From the NCBI GenBank assembly GCA_963664405.1, contig OY761158.1, positions 2,336,001-2,400,000 on the forward strand: a stretch of DNA of 64,000 bases, in the 5' to 3' direction. The position numbers were made by a program, and so were the translations under genes. The stretch is from Thermoanaerobaculia bacterium (GTDB lineage: Bacteria; Acidobacteriota; Thermoanaerobaculia; Multivoradales; Multivoraceae). The notes beneath the pieces were generated by a model. It searched no databases. It saw nothing but the letters and a program-made list of their open reading frames with translations, and was not told the origin of the DNA. Shown here piece by piece: positions 4,426 through 10,672 of the stretch. Numbering within the stretch: the stretch's first letter is position 1; every line of letters begins with the position of its first letter.

Positions 4426-5903
4426 TCGAAGGCATTCTTCAGGGCCTCGCCACCGCTCTCCAGCCCCTAAACCTGGCGATGGTGGTCCTGGGCTGCGGCG
4501 CCGGCACCGTCATCGGCATGATCCCTGGGCTCGGACCCATCACCGCCATCGCCATCATGATCCCGATCACCTACGGCCTCGATCCGGCCACGGGACTCAT
4601 TCTCATGGCCGGGGTCTATTACGGCGCCATCTTCGGCGGCTCGACCTCATCGATCCTGCTCAACGCTCCAGGGGTCGCAGGCACTGTCGCCACGGCTTTC
4701 GACGGCCATCCTCTGGCGCTCAAAGGAGAGGCCGGAAAGGCCCTGGCAGTGGCCGCCTACGCCTCGTTCACAGGCGGCACACTTGCCGCAGTTTTTCTAC
4801 TCGTCGCCGCTCCTGCGCTCGCCGCGGTTGCCCTCGGCTTTCATTCTCCTGACTACTTCGCGCTCGCCGTCCTCGCTCTCGCCTCGGTGTCGGCATTCGC
4901 CGGCGGTGGCCAGCTACTCAAGGCGGCGATGATGGTCGTCGTCGGCCTGATGCTGGCAACCGTGGGGCAAGACACTTCCTCCGATGTCCCTCGCTTCACC
5001 TTTGGCAGCGTGGAGCTTCTCGACGGGCTCAGTTTTCTGCTTCTAGCCATGGCGACCTTCGCCCTTTCCGAAGCGCTTCTCGCCGTCCTCCGCCCCGAGC
5101 GCTGGGGAGCGGCAAGCAAGGCGCCATCCGGACTCGCGTCGCTCCGCTTGAGCCGAAGCGAGGTGCGCGAGGTGGCAGCTCCCATCGCACGCTCTTCGGT
5201 GCTCGGATTCCTGGTTGGGGTCCTGCCCGGCGCTGGTGCGACTCTGGCATCGTTCCTCGCCTACGCGATGGAGCGCAATCTGGCCCCCGAAAGTGAGCAG
5301 AAGAAGTTCGGCACCGGTTCGCTTCGCGGCCTCGCCGCACCCGAAGCCGCCAATAACGCCGCCTGCTCGGGCTCTTTCGTGCCGCTCCTCACCCTGGGCG
5401 TGCCGGGCTCGGCGACAACCGCGATCATGCTCGGCGCCCTGCTCTCACACGGCATCCAGCCGGGTCCGCGCCTCTTGGTCGATCGACCCGAGGTGTTCTG
5501 GTCGGTCATCGTTTCCATGTATCTGGGGAATGTGGTTTTACTGGTTCTCAACCTTCCTCTCATTCCCTGGCTCGCTCGGCTGCTTCAGGTGCCCCGCCCG
5601 ATCATGCTGCCGATGATCCTCTTCTTCTCGGTGATCGGCGTCTATCTCGTCTCCCTCAGCCCCTTCGACATTCTCCTCATGGTTGGTATCGGGCTCGCGG
5701 CTACTCTGCTGCGCCTGCTCGACTATCCTCTGCCACCACTTCTTCTCGCCTTCGTTCTCGGACCGATGCTGGAAGAGAACCTGCGCAGGTCGCTCATCCT
5801 CTACGACGGATCGTTCTCCTTCGTATGGCAGCGACCGACCACCCTGTCGATCCTGCTCCTCACCCTCGGCCTGTGCGCCTGGCGCCTCCGGCCTAGGTGT
5901 TGA
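4422..5903 (+). CDS. tctA: Tripartite tricarboxylate transporter large permease; extreme C-terminus replaced by the IS481 end
   Basis: IPGLGP, YYGAIFGGS, TAFDGHPLA, APEAANNA, LGVPGS and GPMLEENLRRSL motifs. The stop lies inside the IS481 terminal TGTTGA. Confidence 0.92.
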   Translation: MIEGILQGLATALQPLNLAMVVLGCGAGTVIGMIPGLGPITAIAIMIPITYGLDPATGLILMAGVYYGAIFGGSTSSILLNAPGVAGTVATAFDGHPLALKGEAGKALAVAAYASFTGGTLAAVFLLVAAPALAAVALGFHSPDYFALAVLALASVSAFAGGGQLLKAAMMVVVGLMLATVGQDTSSDVPRFTFGSVELLDGLSFLLLAMATFALSEALLAVLRPERWGAASKAPSGLASLRLSRSEVREVAAPIARSSVLGFLVGVLPGAGATLASFLAYAMERNLAPESEQKKFGTGSLRGLAAPEAANNAACSGSFVPLLTLGVPGSATTAIMLGALLSHGIQPGPRLLVDRPEVFWSVIVSMYLGNVVLLVLNLPLIPWLARLLQVPRPIMLPMILFFSVIGVYLVSLSPFDILLMVGIGLAATLLRLLDYPLPPLLLAFVLGPMLEENLRRSLILYDGSFSFVWQRPTTLSILLLTLGLCAWRLRPRC

Positions 5904-6093
5904 TTCCCACAGCGTTGTTCAGTTCGAGCCTGGCGTTAGGCGGTCGTCCGCCGAGGGCTGAGTGGGCTCGATGTTGGTTGTAGAAGTGGAGATATCTGGG
6001 TAAGAGATCGGAGCGCTCGCGCGAGGAGTGGAAGGTGAAGGCGTAGGCCCACTCTCGTTGGAGGGTTTGGATGAATCTCTCGGCTTTCCCGTT
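5893..6093 (-). mobile_element. IS481-family remnant (right end plus transposase C-terminus)
   Basis: NGKAERFIQTLQREWAY...YNQHRAHSALGGRPP. The end begins TGT at 5898, next to CCTAGG, an NCTAGN-type target that supplies the TAG stop. Confidence 0.85.
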
Positions 6094-6386
6094 GGGCTCA
6101 ATGGTCGAATGCACCCGATACAGATTGTGAGCAACGACGTTTTCGGGTAACCCATCCGTTCCACCCGCTGTTGGGGCGTGAGTACGAGCTGGCTCACTAT
6201 CGCCAGTGCTGGGGCGAGGACCGGGTCTTCTACCTGGATGAATGCGAGGAGCTACGCTCCCTTCCAGCGCGTTGGACGAGTGCGGTGGCCGAGGACCCCG
6301 TGGTTGTCCTCTCCGCAGGCAGATCGATGTACCGCTTGGCCGACCTGCTCGAGCTCGCCAAGCTGACCCGGGAGAGCGAGCGATGA
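6093..6386 (+). CDS. DUF5372 (Y4bD/Y4pK-like) protein, 5' end missing in the integrated state
   Basis: FRVTHPFHPLLGREYEL...WGEDRVFY...SLPARWT...DP...GRS..RLADLLEL. The frame is open back to the element boundary with no ATG/GTG before the conserved THPFHP motif. Confidence 0.75.
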   Translation, partial: WAQWSNAPDTDCEQRRFRVTHPFHPLLGREYELAHYRQCWGEDRVFYLDECEELRSLPARWTSAVAEDPVVVLSAGRSMYRLADLLELAKLTRESER

Positions 6387-6419
6387 AGAGCTGCGCGAGG
6401 ACGGTTGAGGGGCACCGTG

Positions 6420-6583
6420 CGTAAAGGAGATTATGCCGTGAATGTAATCACAATTATGTCGGGAAGAGTGCCGGAGTGTGACCAGGAGTGTAGAGATAGG
6501 CCAATTTAATGCACGATCTATCGGTACTCTCTTGGTGGACACCCCTTGACAGAGGATCCATGAGAGGCATAATTAGAATTACA
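6420..6583. promoter_or_regulatory. Three GTAA-N5-ATTATG boxes (two direct, one inverted)
   Basis: cGTAAaggagATTATGcc at 6420, TGTAAtcacaATTATGtc at 6443, and the reverse complement ggCATAATtagaaTTACA at 6566-6583. Confidence 0.6.
6546..6573 (+). promoter_or_regulatory. sigma70-like promoter of the HTH-ORF-LSR operon
   Basis: TTGACA (6546-6551), 16-bp spacer, CATAAT (6568-6573); GAGGAG RBS before ATG 6602. Confidence 0.65.
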
Positions 6584-6601
6584 TTCCATGAGGAGACGAT
6601 C

Positions 6602-7069
6602 ATGCCGCGACGCAGACCCGACCCGAAAGCCGAGGCCCTCCGTCAACGAGGGTGCCTTCATCCCCAGCCGGAGAAGGTCTCGGACGATTTGTTCACCTCG
6701 AGCGAGTTCTTCGACCCTCGAGACCTCGTGCAGGTCAAGTACGAGATGCTGCGCCGTGTCCGGGTGGACAGACACACGGTGAGCCGGAGCGCGGCAAGCT
6801 TCGGGTTGTCGCGCCCATCCTTCTACCACGCCCAGGTGGTTTACGAAGAAGGCGGCCTACCCGCGTTGCTGCCAAGAAAGCCGGGGCCGCGCCGCGCCCA
6901 CAAGCTATCCGAGGAGGTCGTCGAGGCCCTGCACGACAGGCTGGAGGGGGAGCCGGACGCAGATGCAACCGCCCTGGCCGAGTGGGTGCAGAAGCGCTTT
7001 GGCATCTCGATCCATCCGCGCAGCATTGAGCGAGCCCTGGCTCGCCAGGAAAAAAAACGCCGGCCATGA
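6602..7069 (+). CDS. Helix-turn-helix protein of the LSR element
   Basis: FFDPRDLVQVKYEMLR, AASFGLSRPSFY (HTH), LLPRKPGPR, FGISIHPRSIERAL (second HTH-like segment); RBS present. Confidence 0.85.
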   Translation: MPRRRPDPKAEALRQRGCLHPQPEKVSDDLFTSSEFFDPRDLVQVKYEMLRRVRVDRHTVSRSAASFGLSRPSFYHAQVVYEEGGLPALLPRKPGPRRAHKLSEEVVEALHDRLEGEPDADATALAEWVQKRFGISIHPRSIERALARQEKKRRP

Positions 7070-7353
7070 GCGCGACACGCCAGCAGAACGCTCCGGCCCA
7101 TGTCGCTCGCTACGAGGAGCTCCGAGGACATGCGGCGAAGCGGCAGCTCCTATCGGTTCGGTTCGGCTTGGCCGTTCTCCTGCGACAAGGGCTGGCCGCT
7201 TGGGTTGAACAGGGGTCCAAGATGCCCGCGCCGACCCCGGCACCGTCCGCCGAGATAGCCAGGCCGTCCGCACTGCCTCACGATACGAGCGCGGATCTGA
7301 TCAACGTGCTGGCCGCCATGGCTCTCAGCCATCTACAGGAGAACCACGCATGA
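7066..7353 (+). CDS. Small accessory protein of the LSR element
   Basis: YEELR...GLAVLLRQGLAAW...LINVLAAMAL; ATGA overlaps on both sides. Confidence 0.75.
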   Translation: MSATRQQNAPAHVARYEELRGHAAKRQLLSVRFGLAVLLRQGLAAWVEQGSKMPAPTPAPSAEIARPSALPHDTSADLINVLAAMALSHLQENHA

Positions 7354-9443
7354 GCGCAAGCGCCCACCAGAAAGTGACCCCAAGCCACCTGCGACGCGAT
7401 GCGTACCTGTATGTTCGCCAGTCGACCGTGCGCCAGGTGTTCGAGAATACGGAGAGCACGAGACGCCAGTACGCGTTGCGAGAGCGCGCGGTGGCGATGG
7501 GATGGCCCATCGAGCGAGTCATCGTGATCGACTCCGACCTGGGTAAGTCCGCAGCTTCCAGCGTCGACCGCGAGGGCTTTCAGAAGCTCGTCGGCGAGGT
7601 CGGTATGGGCCGAGCCGGGATCGTTCTCGGGCTGGAGGTTTCGCGCCTGGCACGCAATAGCACGGACTGGCATCGACTGCTGGAGATCTGCGCGCTGACC
7701 GACACGCTGATCCTTGACGAGGACGGGGTCTACAGCCCGAGTGATTTCAACGATCGCCTTCTGCTCGGGCTCAAGGGCACGATGAGCGAGGCGGAGCTTC
7801 ACGTGATGCGGGCTCGGCTGCGCGGAGGCATTCTGAATCAGGCGCGCCGAGGTGCGCTGCAAACCCCGTTACCCGTCGGCCTACTCTACGACCCGACCGG
7901 CAACGTGGTGTTAGATCCCGACGGCCAGGTCCAACGGAGCTTCGAGCACCTGTTCGAGACCTTCGAGCGTATGGGCTCGGCCTCGGCGACGGTCAAACAC
8001 TTCCGCGAGCAAGGCTTGCGGTTTCCGCGCCGGCCGCGCTTCGGCCCCCACAAGGGAGAGCTGTTGTGGGAGTCGTTGCGCCACTGGCGCGTCCTGAGGG
8101 TGCTGCACAATCCCCGCTACGCTGGCGCTTTCTGTTTCGGTCGCACTCACACGCAAAAGCGCGTCAACGGCACCATCGAGGTCAAGTCGCTTCCGCGTGA
8201 GGAGTGGACCGCGCTGTTGCTCGACGCGCACCCCGGTTACATTCCCTGGGAACAATTCGAAGAAAACCTGAGACGACTACGAGACAACGCCCAGGCCCAC
8301 GGCCGAGACCGGCGCAAGAGCCCACCGCGCGAGGGGCCAGCGCTGGTGCAGGGCTTGGTCCTCTGCGGCGTTTGTGGCCATCGGATGACGGTCCGCTATC
8401 ACACGCGCAGGGGCACTCAGTGGCCCGAGTACGTCTGCCAGCGCGAGGGCATCGACACCGCGACACCCAAGTGTCAGTCGATCCCGGGCAAGGGCATCGA
8501 TCGGGCCATCGGAGAGCTGCTTGTGGAGACGGTTACGCCTGTGACTCTGGAGGTTGCACTGAAAGTCCAGGTCGAGCTCGATGCACGGATCCACGAGGCC
8601 GATTCCCTGCGGCGCCAGCACGTACAGCGAGCTCGACAGGAGGCTGACTTGGCTCGGCGTCGCTTCATGGAGGTCGATCCGGGGAACCGCCTCGTGGTGG
8701 ATGTCCTCGAGGCCGAGTGGAACGAGAGGCTGCGCGGGCTGCACGACGCACAGGAGGAGCTCGAGCAGCGCCGCCAGCAAGATCACCAACAGCTCGGCGA
8801 CCAGCAACGAGAAGAGATCCTCGCCCTCGCCACCGACTTCCCGCGGTTGTGGAACGACCCGAAGACGCCTCAACGCGAGCGCAAGCGCATGGTGCGCTTG
8901 CTCATCGAGGACGTCACCTTGACGAAGGGCGACGAGATCGTTGTCGGTGTCCGCTTCCGAGGTGGCGCGACACGAAGTCTCAAACTGCCCATTCCGCCGA
9001 CAGCATGGGAGTTACGCCAAACCTCGAAACAGGTCGTTGCCGAGATTGATACCCTGCTTGATGACTACACCGAGGCCGAGATTGCGAGCATCCTCAACGA
9101 CAGAGGCCATCTCTCCGGAGAGGGCAAACGATTTCACGCCGGCATCGTCCGGCGACTGCGCCGTGACTACGACATCAAGAAGAGGTACGACCGACTGCGT
9201 GAGGGGGGAATGCTTACCCTCGAAGAGATGGCTGACCTACTGGGTGTCGCGACCCACACGGTGAAGACATGGCGCAACCACGGCCTGCTGCGTGCCCATG
9301 CCTACAACGACAAGAACGAGTGCCTCTACGAGCATCCCGGCGACGACCCGCCCGTCAAAATGCAGGGCCGAAAACTCTCGAAACGACGGCGCCGCCTCGA
9401 CGTCGAACCGAACCCTACGGAGGAGGTGCAGTGTGAAGCGTAG
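7350..9443 (+). CDS. Large serine recombinase (resolvase, recombinase, zinc ribbon, coiled coil, C-terminal HTHs)
   Basis: AYLYVRQST catalytic Ser motif, DSDLGKS, EVSRLARN, LHNPRYAG, CGVCG...YVC...KC zinc ribbon; 697 aa. Confidence 0.95.
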   Translation: MSASAHQKVTPSHLRRDAYLYVRQSTVRQVFENTESTRRQYALRERAVAMGWPIERVIVIDSDLGKSAASSVDREGFQKLVGEVGMGRAGIVLGLEVSRLARNSTDWHRLLEICALTDTLILDEDGVYSPSDFNDRLLLGLKGTMSEAELHVMRARLRGGILNQARRGALQTPLPVGLLYDPTGNVVLDPDGQVQRSFEHLFETFERMGSASATVKHFREQGLRFPRRPRFGPHKGELLWESLRHWRVLRVLHNPRYAGAFCFGRTHTQKRVNGTIEVKSLPREEWTALLLDAHPGYIPWEQFEENLRRLRDNAQAHGRDRRKSPPREGPALVQGLVLCGVCGHRMTVRYHTRRGTQWPEYVCQREGIDTATPKCQSIPGKGIDRAIGELLVETVTPVTLEVALKVQVELDARIHEADSLRRQHVQRARQEADLARRRFMEVDPGNRLVVDVLEAEWNERLRGLHDAQEELEQRRQQDHQQLGDQQREEILALATDFPRLWNDPKTPQRERKRMVRLLIEDVTLTKGDEIVVGVRFRGGATRSLKLPIPPTAWELRQTSKQVVAEIDTLLDDYTEAEIASILNDRGHLSGEGKRFHAGIVRRLRRDYDIKKRYDRLREGGMLTLEEMADLLGVATHTVKTWRNHGLLRAHAYNDKNECLYEHPGDDPPVKMQGRKLSKRRRRLDVEPNPTEEVQCEA

Positions 9444-9448
9444 CCCTT

Positions 9449-10215
9449 GGTGCGAGGCCGGCCCCGGCGGGGCTCCTCAACATCCGGCGGCGGCGGATCC
9501 TGCTTCTTCGCCTCGGCCTCCAGCTCCGCCTTGGCCGCACGGATCTTCGCCAGACGCTGCTTCTTGTTCACCACCCAGTCCGGCAGCTCATCGTCGCGCT
9601 TGTCTTCGCCGAACTCCGAGTCCTCGGTTGTCGACGGCGTCGGCTCTCTCCAGCCACTCTGCGACTTGCGCCGCCAGCTCCGCCTCAGCCTTCTGCATCC
9701 GCGCGTAGCTCATCGCCTTGTGCTTCGAAGCGTTGGCGCGCACCTTCGTCCCGTCCAGAGCCACGTGACCCAAACGGACCAAACCCGCCCCTTGCGGCAC
9801 AGCTGCAGGACCTGCACGAACAGCTCCCCAAGCGCCTGCAAATGACGCTGACGGAACAAGTTGATCGTGCGAAAGTCCGGCTGCTGCAACGCCGTCACGG
9901 CCATGAAATCCACCCGCTGCTCGCAGGCCTGGGCCAGGCGACGAGACGAGTACACCCCTTGCGTGTAGCCGTACACCAGCAGCGCCGTCATCATCCTTGG
10001 GTCGTACGGAGGAAAACCACGCTCTTCCGTGTAGCTATCCAAAATACCCGACAGGTCCAGCGACTCACGCACCGTCTCCCGTACGAAATGCGCCACGTGG
10101 CCCGCAGACACCAGCTCCTGCACCGATGGCGGCAGCAACCAGATCTGATCCACATCCCACGATCGAAAGGTCTTAGCCATGCCCCAACCTAAACATACCC
10201 CTCGATGTCTTGGAC
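9449..10215 (-). mobile_element. IS1182-family transposase remnant (N-terminal half, two frameshifts)
   Basis: ATG 10180; LLPPSVQE, GFPPYDPRMM, SSRRLAQAC, PDFRTI, ALDGTKVRANASKHKAMSY and RLAKIRAAK spread over three frames. Confidence 0.88.
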
Positions 10216-10353
10216 CTGCCCCTCTTCGCTCGCCAGACGAACTGCCTGCTTCTTGAACTCTCGATCGAATCGCCGTCGCTTCGAACTCATTCGAACACCT
10301 CCTCGGCCCATTCTCAGGCCAATCTCGGTGTCCACCAGACCCGCTACGGCTCA
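10216..10353 (-). mobile_element. IS3-family left-end fragment, copy 1
   Basis: IRL TGAGCCGTAGCGGGTCTGGTGGACACC and orfA start MSSKRRRFDREFKKQAVRL; near-identical to 15000-15137. Confidence 0.8.
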
Positions 10354-10450
10354 AGGTGCCCTCCGCGAACTCACCCGTTTCTAGAAAGTGATCTCGCGCC
10401 TCGTTGATGGCGTAGGGATCGAGCTCGCCGTGCAGCTCATGGAACCGACG
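10354..10450 (-). repeat. Duplicated gene fragment, paralogous to 13723-13819
   Basis: 97-bp alignment with about 10 mismatches by eye; both copies encode RRF..LHGELDP..INEARDHFLET.EFAEGT. Confidence 0.75.
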
Positions 10451-10672
10451 TACTGAAACTGCCAAAACGCCTCTTCGAAGCCAACTAAGCGCGGTTTCTC
10501 GTAACCGGTAACACGGGGCGACGGCTCGCAGCGATGCCGAGGTAGCGGAGTTGAAGCACCGCCGAGATCTGCTGGGCAGGTACTTCAGCGAGGAGAAGTA
10601 AAGAGCGGCGACATCCCTGGTGCCATTGTACGAAGAGCTCGTCGCAGAGCTGCGGCAAGCGCTCATCCCGTC

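Follow-up and report, generated by a model that had tools for sequence, protein, structure and literature searches.

A large serine recombinase element whose DUF5372 gene is split at the attachment site and would be complete only on the excised circle

The "suicidal" integrases of the SSV1 type, known from archaeal viruses and plasmids, carry their attachment (att) site inside a gene of the element, which is intact only on the circle; passages of a review liken this arrangement to directionality control and state that it occurs only in archaea (PMC8371274). Here we describe a bacterial element moved by a large serine recombinase (LSR) and located in a 64,000-nucleotide stretch of the genome of a Thermoanaerobaculia bacterium (assembly GCA_963664405.1, contig OY761158.1, positions 2,336,001 to 2,400,000 of the forward strand; below, the window, whose own numbering is used throughout). 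Its crossover point lies inside the coding sequence of a small accessory gene, encoding a protein of the DUF5372 family. As far as the review passages go, the SSV1 type offers the closest logic, with an att site in a coding gene and integration splitting that gene. There, the split gene is that of the tyrosine integrase, and two protein halves are parted from each other, whereas here, in a bacterium, the LSR open reading frame (ORF) is intact in the integrated copies, an accessory gene is split instead, and start signals are parted from the gene body.

Integration-dependent immunity in mycobacteriophage BPs and its relatives, according to passages on these phages, relies on attP being located within a regulatory gene (PMC4557955). 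So far as this account goes, the likeness consists in the integrated and free forms encoding different products, with DNA topology acting as the state signal. In BPs, integration alters the C-terminus of the repressor and both forms are translated, whereas the integrated form of the present element is left without any start. In Tn4451/Tn4453 (TnpX), IS911, IS30, and IS110-type elements, circle-junction promoters switch on the mobility function when the ends join; such promoters are built from the two ends, whereas here the promoter is internal and constant, and it is the translation start and the coding sequence that would be assembled. State-dependent promoter switching is also described, in a passage on ICEKp1 (PMC13023037).

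Serine "transposases" and multi-targeting LSRs (TnpX, TndX; the DUF4368 clade) move a small element via a circle into many TT-core sites, as stated in passages of PMC10083194, and the present element resembles them in having an LSR, a presumed circle, and many sites sharing the TT core. Unlike the DUF4368 clade, its LSR lacks DUF4368 and travels with three conserved accessory genes, and its sites are not AT-rich, being found at one protein-motif position in DDE transposase genes.

The element and its split gene

The segment 6092–9448 is an insertion-sequence-like element of 3357 bp (about 3.36 kb) moved by the LSR, with the crossover at a 2-bp TT core. The source genome, assembled as one 6.78-Mb contig, contains five copies of the element with 99–100% identity, and the similarity among them stops exactly at the TT of either end (6092–6093 and 9447–9448), where the initial annotation of the window, made from the letters alone, had noted the repeated dinucleotide. 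At the left end, the core is followed by GGGCT (6094–6098), 11 nt, and TGCACC (6111–6116), and at the right end it is preceded by GGTGCA (9425–9430), 11 nt, and AGCCC (9442–9446). Joined, the ends form GGTGCA-16 nt-TT-16 nt-TGCACC, that is, the imperfect inverted half-sites around a 2-bp core that the same annotation had read as a serine-recombinase att site, and the spacing (core, 16 nt, TGCACC-like motif) recurs in homologues. The IS21-like target of one copy (L004) has 22 further copies without the element, and the target of another (L005) has one; in these unoccupied sites (22 and 1), the left flank overlaps the right one by exactly 2 nt, with a single TT, so that the core is present on both sides of occupied sites and once in empty ones. 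The overlap of 2 nt points to a conservative 2-bp crossover and fixes the att core independently of the reasoning behind the initial annotation. In one distant homologue (L020, contig CAVONV010000022.1) the core is TA, not TT, at both ends, and the frame discussed below is kept; a TA core is palindromic and alone would not set the orientation.

The recombinase matches the Pfam families Resolvase (2.5e-17), Recombinase (3.9e-11), and Zn_ribbon_recom (2.2e-7), i.e., it has the domains of an LSR. Among 35 LSR sequences, Ser-25 (in R-Q-S-T) shows at least 90% conservation, and its position suggests that it is the catalytic nucleophile.

The DUF5372 frame (first codon positions divisible by 3) stays open between the stops at 6072–6074 and 6384–6386 and so runs across the left boundary of the element. 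It was claimed to hold no ATG or GTG before its conserved motif, and this is correct for TTG as well, the first of the three codons in frame being the TTG at 6171, after the motif. The PF17342 match (73.1 bits, gathering cut-off 25) covers model positions 1–73 of 78, and places model position 1 at nt 6147, which is upstream of all starts within the element. At the right end, a Shine–Dalgarno-like AGGAGGT (9421–9427) is followed 5 nt later by GTG (9433–9435), both lying within the last LSR codons, exactly as had been noticed. In silico joining of the ends yields a 102-aa in-frame ORF placed directly behind the LSR, again in agreement with the initial annotation, and the core TT supplies position 3 of codon 5 and position 1 of codon 6 of this junction ORF in all 52 loci with both ends available. 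The crossover point thus falls between codon 5 and codon 6 of the DUF5372 coding sequence, and integration splits the gene: the ribosome-binding site, the start, and the first five codons remain at the right end, and the other 97 codons at the left end. The excision-gated anatomy is therefore confirmed; it suggests that a circle forms, that the junction ORF is translated on it, and that DUF5372 is produced only from the circle.

On the plus strand, the DUF5372 body is followed by the gene for a helix-turn-helix (HTH) protein, a 95-aa ORF, and the LSR gene, the stops and starts of the last three overlapping. Between DUF5372 and the HTH gene lies a sigma-70-type promoter, TTGACA-16-CATAAT (6546–6573; 11 out of 12 matches), which is found with at least 10 out of 12 matches in 37 out of 48 non-redundant elements from the homologue collection described below. 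It is wholly internal, the joined ends themselves being unscanned for an extra promoter. A 19-nt inverted repeat, likely an operator pair, brackets this promoter (6440–6458 and 6568–6586). The second arm of the repeat overlaps the −10 box, and in many homologues a TTACA motif follows the −10 box. Being startless and located upstream of the sole conserved promoter, DUF5372 is both promoterless and startless in the integrated element and is the last cistron on the circle, where the overlap of its start with the LSR stop would couple the two translationally.

Conservation of the junction frame

Homologous elements were collected in three ways, namely, by LSR homology, by DUF5372 homology against plasmids, and by the right-end pattern in metagenome contigs. 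LSR homology yielded 30 loci from many phyla (41–94% identity over the best-matching segment), 23 of which reach the right end; in all 23, ATG or GTG stands 14 nt ahead of the core, with a purine-rich GAGGTG-like motif in front of it, and the joined frame was checked by hand in the most distant loci (L019, L020, L021, L026). The comparison with plasmids produced 134 records, five of which were opened: four contain complete elements (pNGR234a, S. meliloti, Burkholderia, Rhodococcus), each having a Shine–Dalgarno-like motif and a GTG or ATG whose frame continues across the ends, and the fifth (Streptomyces) is a truncated element. In the plasmid copies, a gene about the size of the 95-aa ORF stands at the same place. 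The initial annotation had likened the gene set to the y4bA–D module of Rhizobium NGR234; gene content and order do agree, pNGR234a having the same four-gene module; its gene table does not give the y4b names. The metagenome pattern, which fixed RTG and GAGGTGCA, was found in at least 120 stretches (loci L037 onward), and these loci add left ends, frames, and targets.

Pooled, the collections comprise 58 loci with the left end and 52 with both ends, six of the 58 having no right end on the contig. Eight loci in which the tblastn hit lacked the H-x-F/Y/L-H-P motif were dropped (L073, L100, L104, L123, L127, L139, L142, L155), and L022 and L166 are degenerate copies. The junction ORF is in frame in 52 out of 52 both-end loci, its length being 101–119 aa. 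Hence the ribosome-binding site, start, and frame are kept across the junction in every both-end locus, at all 23 right ends of the LSR-homology set, and in all four plasmid copies, and the loss of frame in homologues, which had been named as grounds for rejecting the excision-gated gene, did not occur.

A conserved internal start of DUF5372, named as another such ground, was not seen either: 32 out of 52 loci have no ATG, GTG, or TTG whatever between the core and the conserved motif, and the remaining loci have TTG at codon 9, GTG at Val-24, or other scattered start codons. In 12 out of 52 loci, the flank offers an in-frame start that is not cut off by a stop, this start differing by target, and in 40 it offers none. 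Among the 120 listed out of 443 database proteins near the query length, starts vary (94-aa, 79-aa, and flank-extended forms), the annotated starts of DUF5372 proteins being whichever TTG, GTG, or flank start the gene callers find. Nine longer database proteins are read-ins from the flanks, one of them from an IS91-type gene, and no fusion to the LSR is seen among these nine.

For the codon analysis, we used the 48 non-redundant elements, four of the five copies from the source genome being dropped as redundant. The start codon is GTG in 28 of these and ATG in 20, i.e., its first position varies between G and A only, and the overlapping LSR codon thereby alternates between Cys and Tyr. Codon 2 encodes Lys in all 48 elements (AAG or AAA), codon 4 encodes Ser in 40 and Asn in seven, and codon 5 encodes Pro in 47. 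Codons 1–40 contain no stop in any element, while the same frame further upstream, out of the LSR frame, does carry stops. The distance from the core to the His codon is constant (61 nt; 64 nt in the NGR234 type). Position entropies in codons 26–75 equal 0.82, 0.78, and 1.45, the third position being the highest, a pattern typical of a protein under purifying selection. The LSR stop, by comparison, shifts: it precedes the start in L019 and L036, is part of ATGA in L020, L021, and L027, follows the start by 8 nt in the window, and lies within the flank in L023 and L035. Thus, the LSR frame or tail is not what holds the right-end stretch.

A candidate cofactor and competing explanations

Known directionality factors of large serine integrases have, according to passages of two papers, a predicted binding site in common, close to the coiled coil's base (PMC11722253, PMC5814800). 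The structural model of DUF5372 (pLDDT 82.2, from a 50-sequence alignment) consists of five strands followed by two helices, with the first 12 residues disordered. A Foldseek comparison of this model with PDB gave no match at E ≤ 0.001 (best E 9.3e-3); the best matches are the small barrels of ribosomal protein eS4 and NdhS, from which the fold may be read as a generic SH3/KOW-like small beta-barrel with a C-terminal helix. The model of the DUF5372–LSR complex scored 0.69, the best of three controls scoring 0.00; the same score mark is reached by 58 out of 80 solved complexes and two out of 110 mismatched pairs, counts that hold here only roughly due to the custom alignments in the complex model. 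In these runs, the contact agreement was at least 82% and the partner pLDDT at least 67. On the DUF5372 side, the predicted interface is formed by the near-invariant HPFHPL motif and the C-terminal helix, and on the LSR side by residues 338–343, 394–413, and 482–541, which include invariant residues of alignment A2 and represent the zinc ribbon together with both segments, outgoing and returning, at the coiled-coil base. The model thus supports a predicted binding of DUF5372 to the LSR at the place where known directionality factors bind. Like phiC31 gp3, Bxb1 gp47, and SPbeta SprB, DUF5372 would be a small cofactor positioned at the zinc ribbon and coiled-coil base, and unlike them it has no relation to these factors in sequence or fold. 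The initial annotation had suggested a role such as integration cofactor, directionality factor, or targeting factor; the predicted binding site and the complex model favor a cofactor of this kind, and the direction of its effect we infer from the considerations below.

We consider it probable that the locus is best explained as an LSR element with an att-split DUF5372 gene that is complete only on the circle and acts as a state-reporting cofactor of the LSR; the gene restored on the circle would probably tell the recombinase which state the element is in. In the integrated element, the promoter at 6546–6573 would drive the HTH gene, the 95-aa ORF, and the LSR gene, and DUF5372 would not be made. 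Recombination of attL with attR would release a circle carrying attP and the complete DUF5372 gene as the last cistron of the operon. Made together with the LSR, DUF5372 would bind it at the site controlling the coiled-coil trajectory and report the excised state, most likely by switching the LSR to attP × attB integration or by blocking the reverse reaction, and integration would split the gene again, so that the signal would decay. No replication gene is present among the ORFs and Pfam matches of the 3.3-kb window element, and since a circle without one must reinsert, an integration-favoring DUF5372 is the most coherent reading; we put the integration-promoting direction at somewhat below even odds. 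As judged from the sequences, the interpretation offered in the initial annotation is supported.

Several observations weigh against this explanation. In any assembled data, there is no direct evidence of the circle or of the junction protein: the junction pattern has no matches in metagenome contigs, where the right-end-only control finds at least 120 stretches; the left end follows none of the 120 right ends listed there; and the source genome contains no junctions and five right ends. The junction residues begin none of the 120 listed (443 in all) near-length DUF5372 proteins and none of the nine longer ones. The right-end stretch is subject to three overlapping constraints, being at the same time the LSR C-terminus, the P arm of the att site, and the proposed ribosome site with the start, which makes its conservation alone ambiguous; moreover, as the metagenome pattern fixed RTG and GAGGTGCA, the metagenome loci give no independent support for these letters. 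Conservation of the frame is partly automatic, the att arms tolerating no indels; codons 6–13 coincide with the P' half-site, and the third-position excess is weak in codons 14–21. The complex score is a model confidence and not a measurement. Finally, to our knowledge, known directionality factors all come from the integrated state, being expressed from the integrated prophage, and push toward excision, whereas DUF5372 is intact only after excision; a canonical factor promotes excision, which a post-excision factor does not fit, and the proposed direction is therefore a guess.

Two further scans were uninformative. The right-to-left joint was unseen in the Logan contigs of four sequencing runs, which says nothing either way because contigs drop rare variants, and viral contigs contained neither the junction nor the control pattern. 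Contigs L008, L048, L059, L062, L083, and L140 (3350–3412 bases) begin/end within a few bases of the element ends; with no end overlap seen, they look like collapsed-repeat contigs of a multi-copy element and not like circles.

If DUF5372 were instead a canonical directionality factor, it would promote attL × attR excision and inhibit integration, a rare first excision feeding a burst in trans; the anatomy would be the same as for the state-reporting cofactor, with only the sign of the effect reversed. The predicted binding site is the one common to known directionality factors, the five genomic copies could respond in trans, and LSRs without a cofactor are normally integration-only, according to passages of PMC5814800 and PMC11722253. 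However, the first excision would be left unexplained, and a non-replicating circle would act to inhibit its reintegration, a costly outcome for a 3.3-kb element without a replication gene. We regard this alternative as unlikely.

The start and the Shine–Dalgarno-like motif at the right end could also be by-products of the att and LSR constraints, with DUF5372 being translated from the integrated copies via non-canonical or flank starts. The stretch does overlap the P half-site and the LSR tail, 12 out of 52 loci have an in-frame flank start before a stop, and gene callers find some start in many copies, with nine longer proteins read in from the flanks. Yet flank starts are absent in the other 40 loci and vary between targets, none of the codon columns between core and motif shows a conserved start or near-start, DUF5372 is located upstream of the sole conserved promoter, and the length of the LSR tail varies while Met/Val-Lys-x-x-Pro stays. 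In addition, DUF5372 is under purifying selection (third-position entropy of 1.45 vs. 0.82 and 0.78), so that a reliable start must exist somewhere. Taking all this into account, we find a by-product origin highly improbable.

Equally poor chances are given to a real junction ORF encoding a transcriptional regulator, e.g., one shutting off the operon via the inverted repeats, and not an LSR cofactor: the conserved promoter is flanked by the 19-nt repeat, and DUF5372 is predicted to be a generic small beta-barrel without a significant PDB match, but such a role would suit the HTH protein that the element already has, and the predicted LSR complex passed, with controls at 0.00 and with conserved residues of both partners used.

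Targets, flanks, and accessory genes

All insertions are antisense to the interrupted gene. When the 138 distinct right flanks are read antisense, the frame stays open over at least 30 codons in 121 of them, and in 103 a Pro codon is found three codons ahead of the core (endings typically read SPWQ, SPNL, SPQA, GNPYD, and ARGNE), and the left flanks begin with N/K-x-x-x-E-R in most of 47 distinct cases; in the window, the left flank is the target half starting at the Asn codon of an N-G-K-A-E-R-F motif. The insertion position thus has P-x-x on one side and N/K-x-x-x-E-R on the other and precedes the catalytic Glu by a few codons (window 6080–6093 and 9447–9480; loci L002–L156). Ten long target fragments were scanned: five match rve, the model ending at the insertion point in four of them, one has an IS66 DDE domain, and the other four have only transposase-type HTH domains (E ≤ 1e-5). 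The target types are transposase genes of rve (IS3, IS21, IS481), IS66, and IS630-like families. Counted from the core, conserved positions of the target DNA are few (T at −12, 89%; C at −11, 91%; G at +9, 84%; G at +10, 77%). As indicated by the flank sequences, this element family enters DDE transposases of several insertion sequence (IS) families, with the catalytic Glu lying a few codons downstream of the insertion.

Two out of five copies in the genome have hybrid flanks: in the window copy, the left flank is IS481-like and the right one IS1182-like, and in copy L003 they are IS21-like and IS3-like, respectively. Copy L002 shares the left flank of the window copy, and the insertion into the IS481-like gene is clean there; this left flank occurs just twice in the genome, both copies being occupied. 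By eye, the right flank of the window copy resembles the true IS481 right flank at about 17 of the first 23 bases, and no intact identical copy of the IS1182-like right flank was found in the same genome. The hybrid flanks could be due to recombination between copies, use of a pseudo-site, or later deletion. The IS21-like target flank is present in 24 copies, 22 of which are intact and unoccupied (e.g., C1:52218-52719, plus 21 other places), with one clean insertion (L004) and one L003 hybrid; thus, many apparently suitable sites remain unused.

Right of the element, the IS1182-like gene on the minus strand seems frameshifted (9560–9600 region), and the adjacent minus-strand ORFs 9326–9574 and 9588–9800 appear to encode consecutive portions of a single transposase. 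Some 40 nt at 10475–10518 match over 20 genomic places with about 90% identity, all of these places being about 1.7 kb from an IS21-like copy, and probably form an end of the IS21-like IS. Sequencing runs X1–X3 and X5 contain a diverged second DUF5372-type left end (loose ends at window position 6131), which is absent from the assembled genome.

The HTH protein matches the NCBIfam models for IS630 and IS481 transposases, below cut-off and only at their N-terminal positions (about 110). It amounts to a DNA-binding domain of the transposase type that lacks the catalytic part and is carried by an element that targets transposase genes. Judging by these matches, it is likely a regulator or a site-binding factor. 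For the 95-aa ORF, no Pfam or NCBIfam match was found; it overlaps both neighbors, with the HTH stop at its start and the LSR start at its stop. All features are summarized in Table 1.

Table 1. Features of the element and its flanks in the window (positions in window numbering).
Feature	Position	Strand	Basis or remark
Left flank, 3' fragment of IS481-like (rve) transposase gene	5893–6091	−	Pfam rve_3, E 4.9e-13
Left end, core TT and P' half-site, also DUF5372 codons 6–13	6092–6116	+	Five-copy identity begins here
DUF5372 body, 97 codons and stop	6093–6386	+	PF17342, 73.1 bits
Regulatory region, inverted repeat and sigma-70-type promoter	6440–6586	+	Promoter 11/12
HTH protein, 155 aa	6602–7069	+	Pfam HTH_32, HTH_29, HTH_28
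95-aa ORF	7066–7353	+	ORF list; without family match
LSR, 697 aa	7350–9443	+	Pfam Resolvase, Recombinase, Zn_ribbon_recom
Right end: AGGAGGT, GTG, four further DUF5372 codons, P half-site, core TT	9421–9448	+	Kept in homologues
Right flank, fragment of IS1182-like transposase gene	9449–10666	−	Pfam DUF772

A literature search, with subscription journals and supplementary files outside its reach, found no paper on DUF5372 or on the genes of the NGR234 module; none was found on an LSR targeting transposase genes, and the passages of PMC10083194 contain no mention of this. Combining the target preference with the split gene, one may tentatively, and with less confidence than in the integration-promoting direction itself, envisage a widespread bacterial family of 3.3-kb LSR elements that are parasites of transposons, home to codons shortly upstream of the catalytic Glu in DDE genes, set the recombination direction through their own topology, and carry an "inverse" directionality factor, which would be expressed only from the circle, license integration, and be destroyed by integrating.

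The choice between integration and excision by large serine integrases is an active structural and engineering question, and a conserved cofactor gene existing only in the excised state would, if true, represent a new logic of control, and four small genes with two short att sites would allow a direct test of the question. The split gene would also explain the inconsistent starts of DUF5372 proteins in databases, the true start being 3.3 kb away. For programmable integration, an LSR reading a DNA site of such loose conservation is of interest, and the preference for transposase genes suggests a kind of mobile DNA by which other transposons are inactivated.

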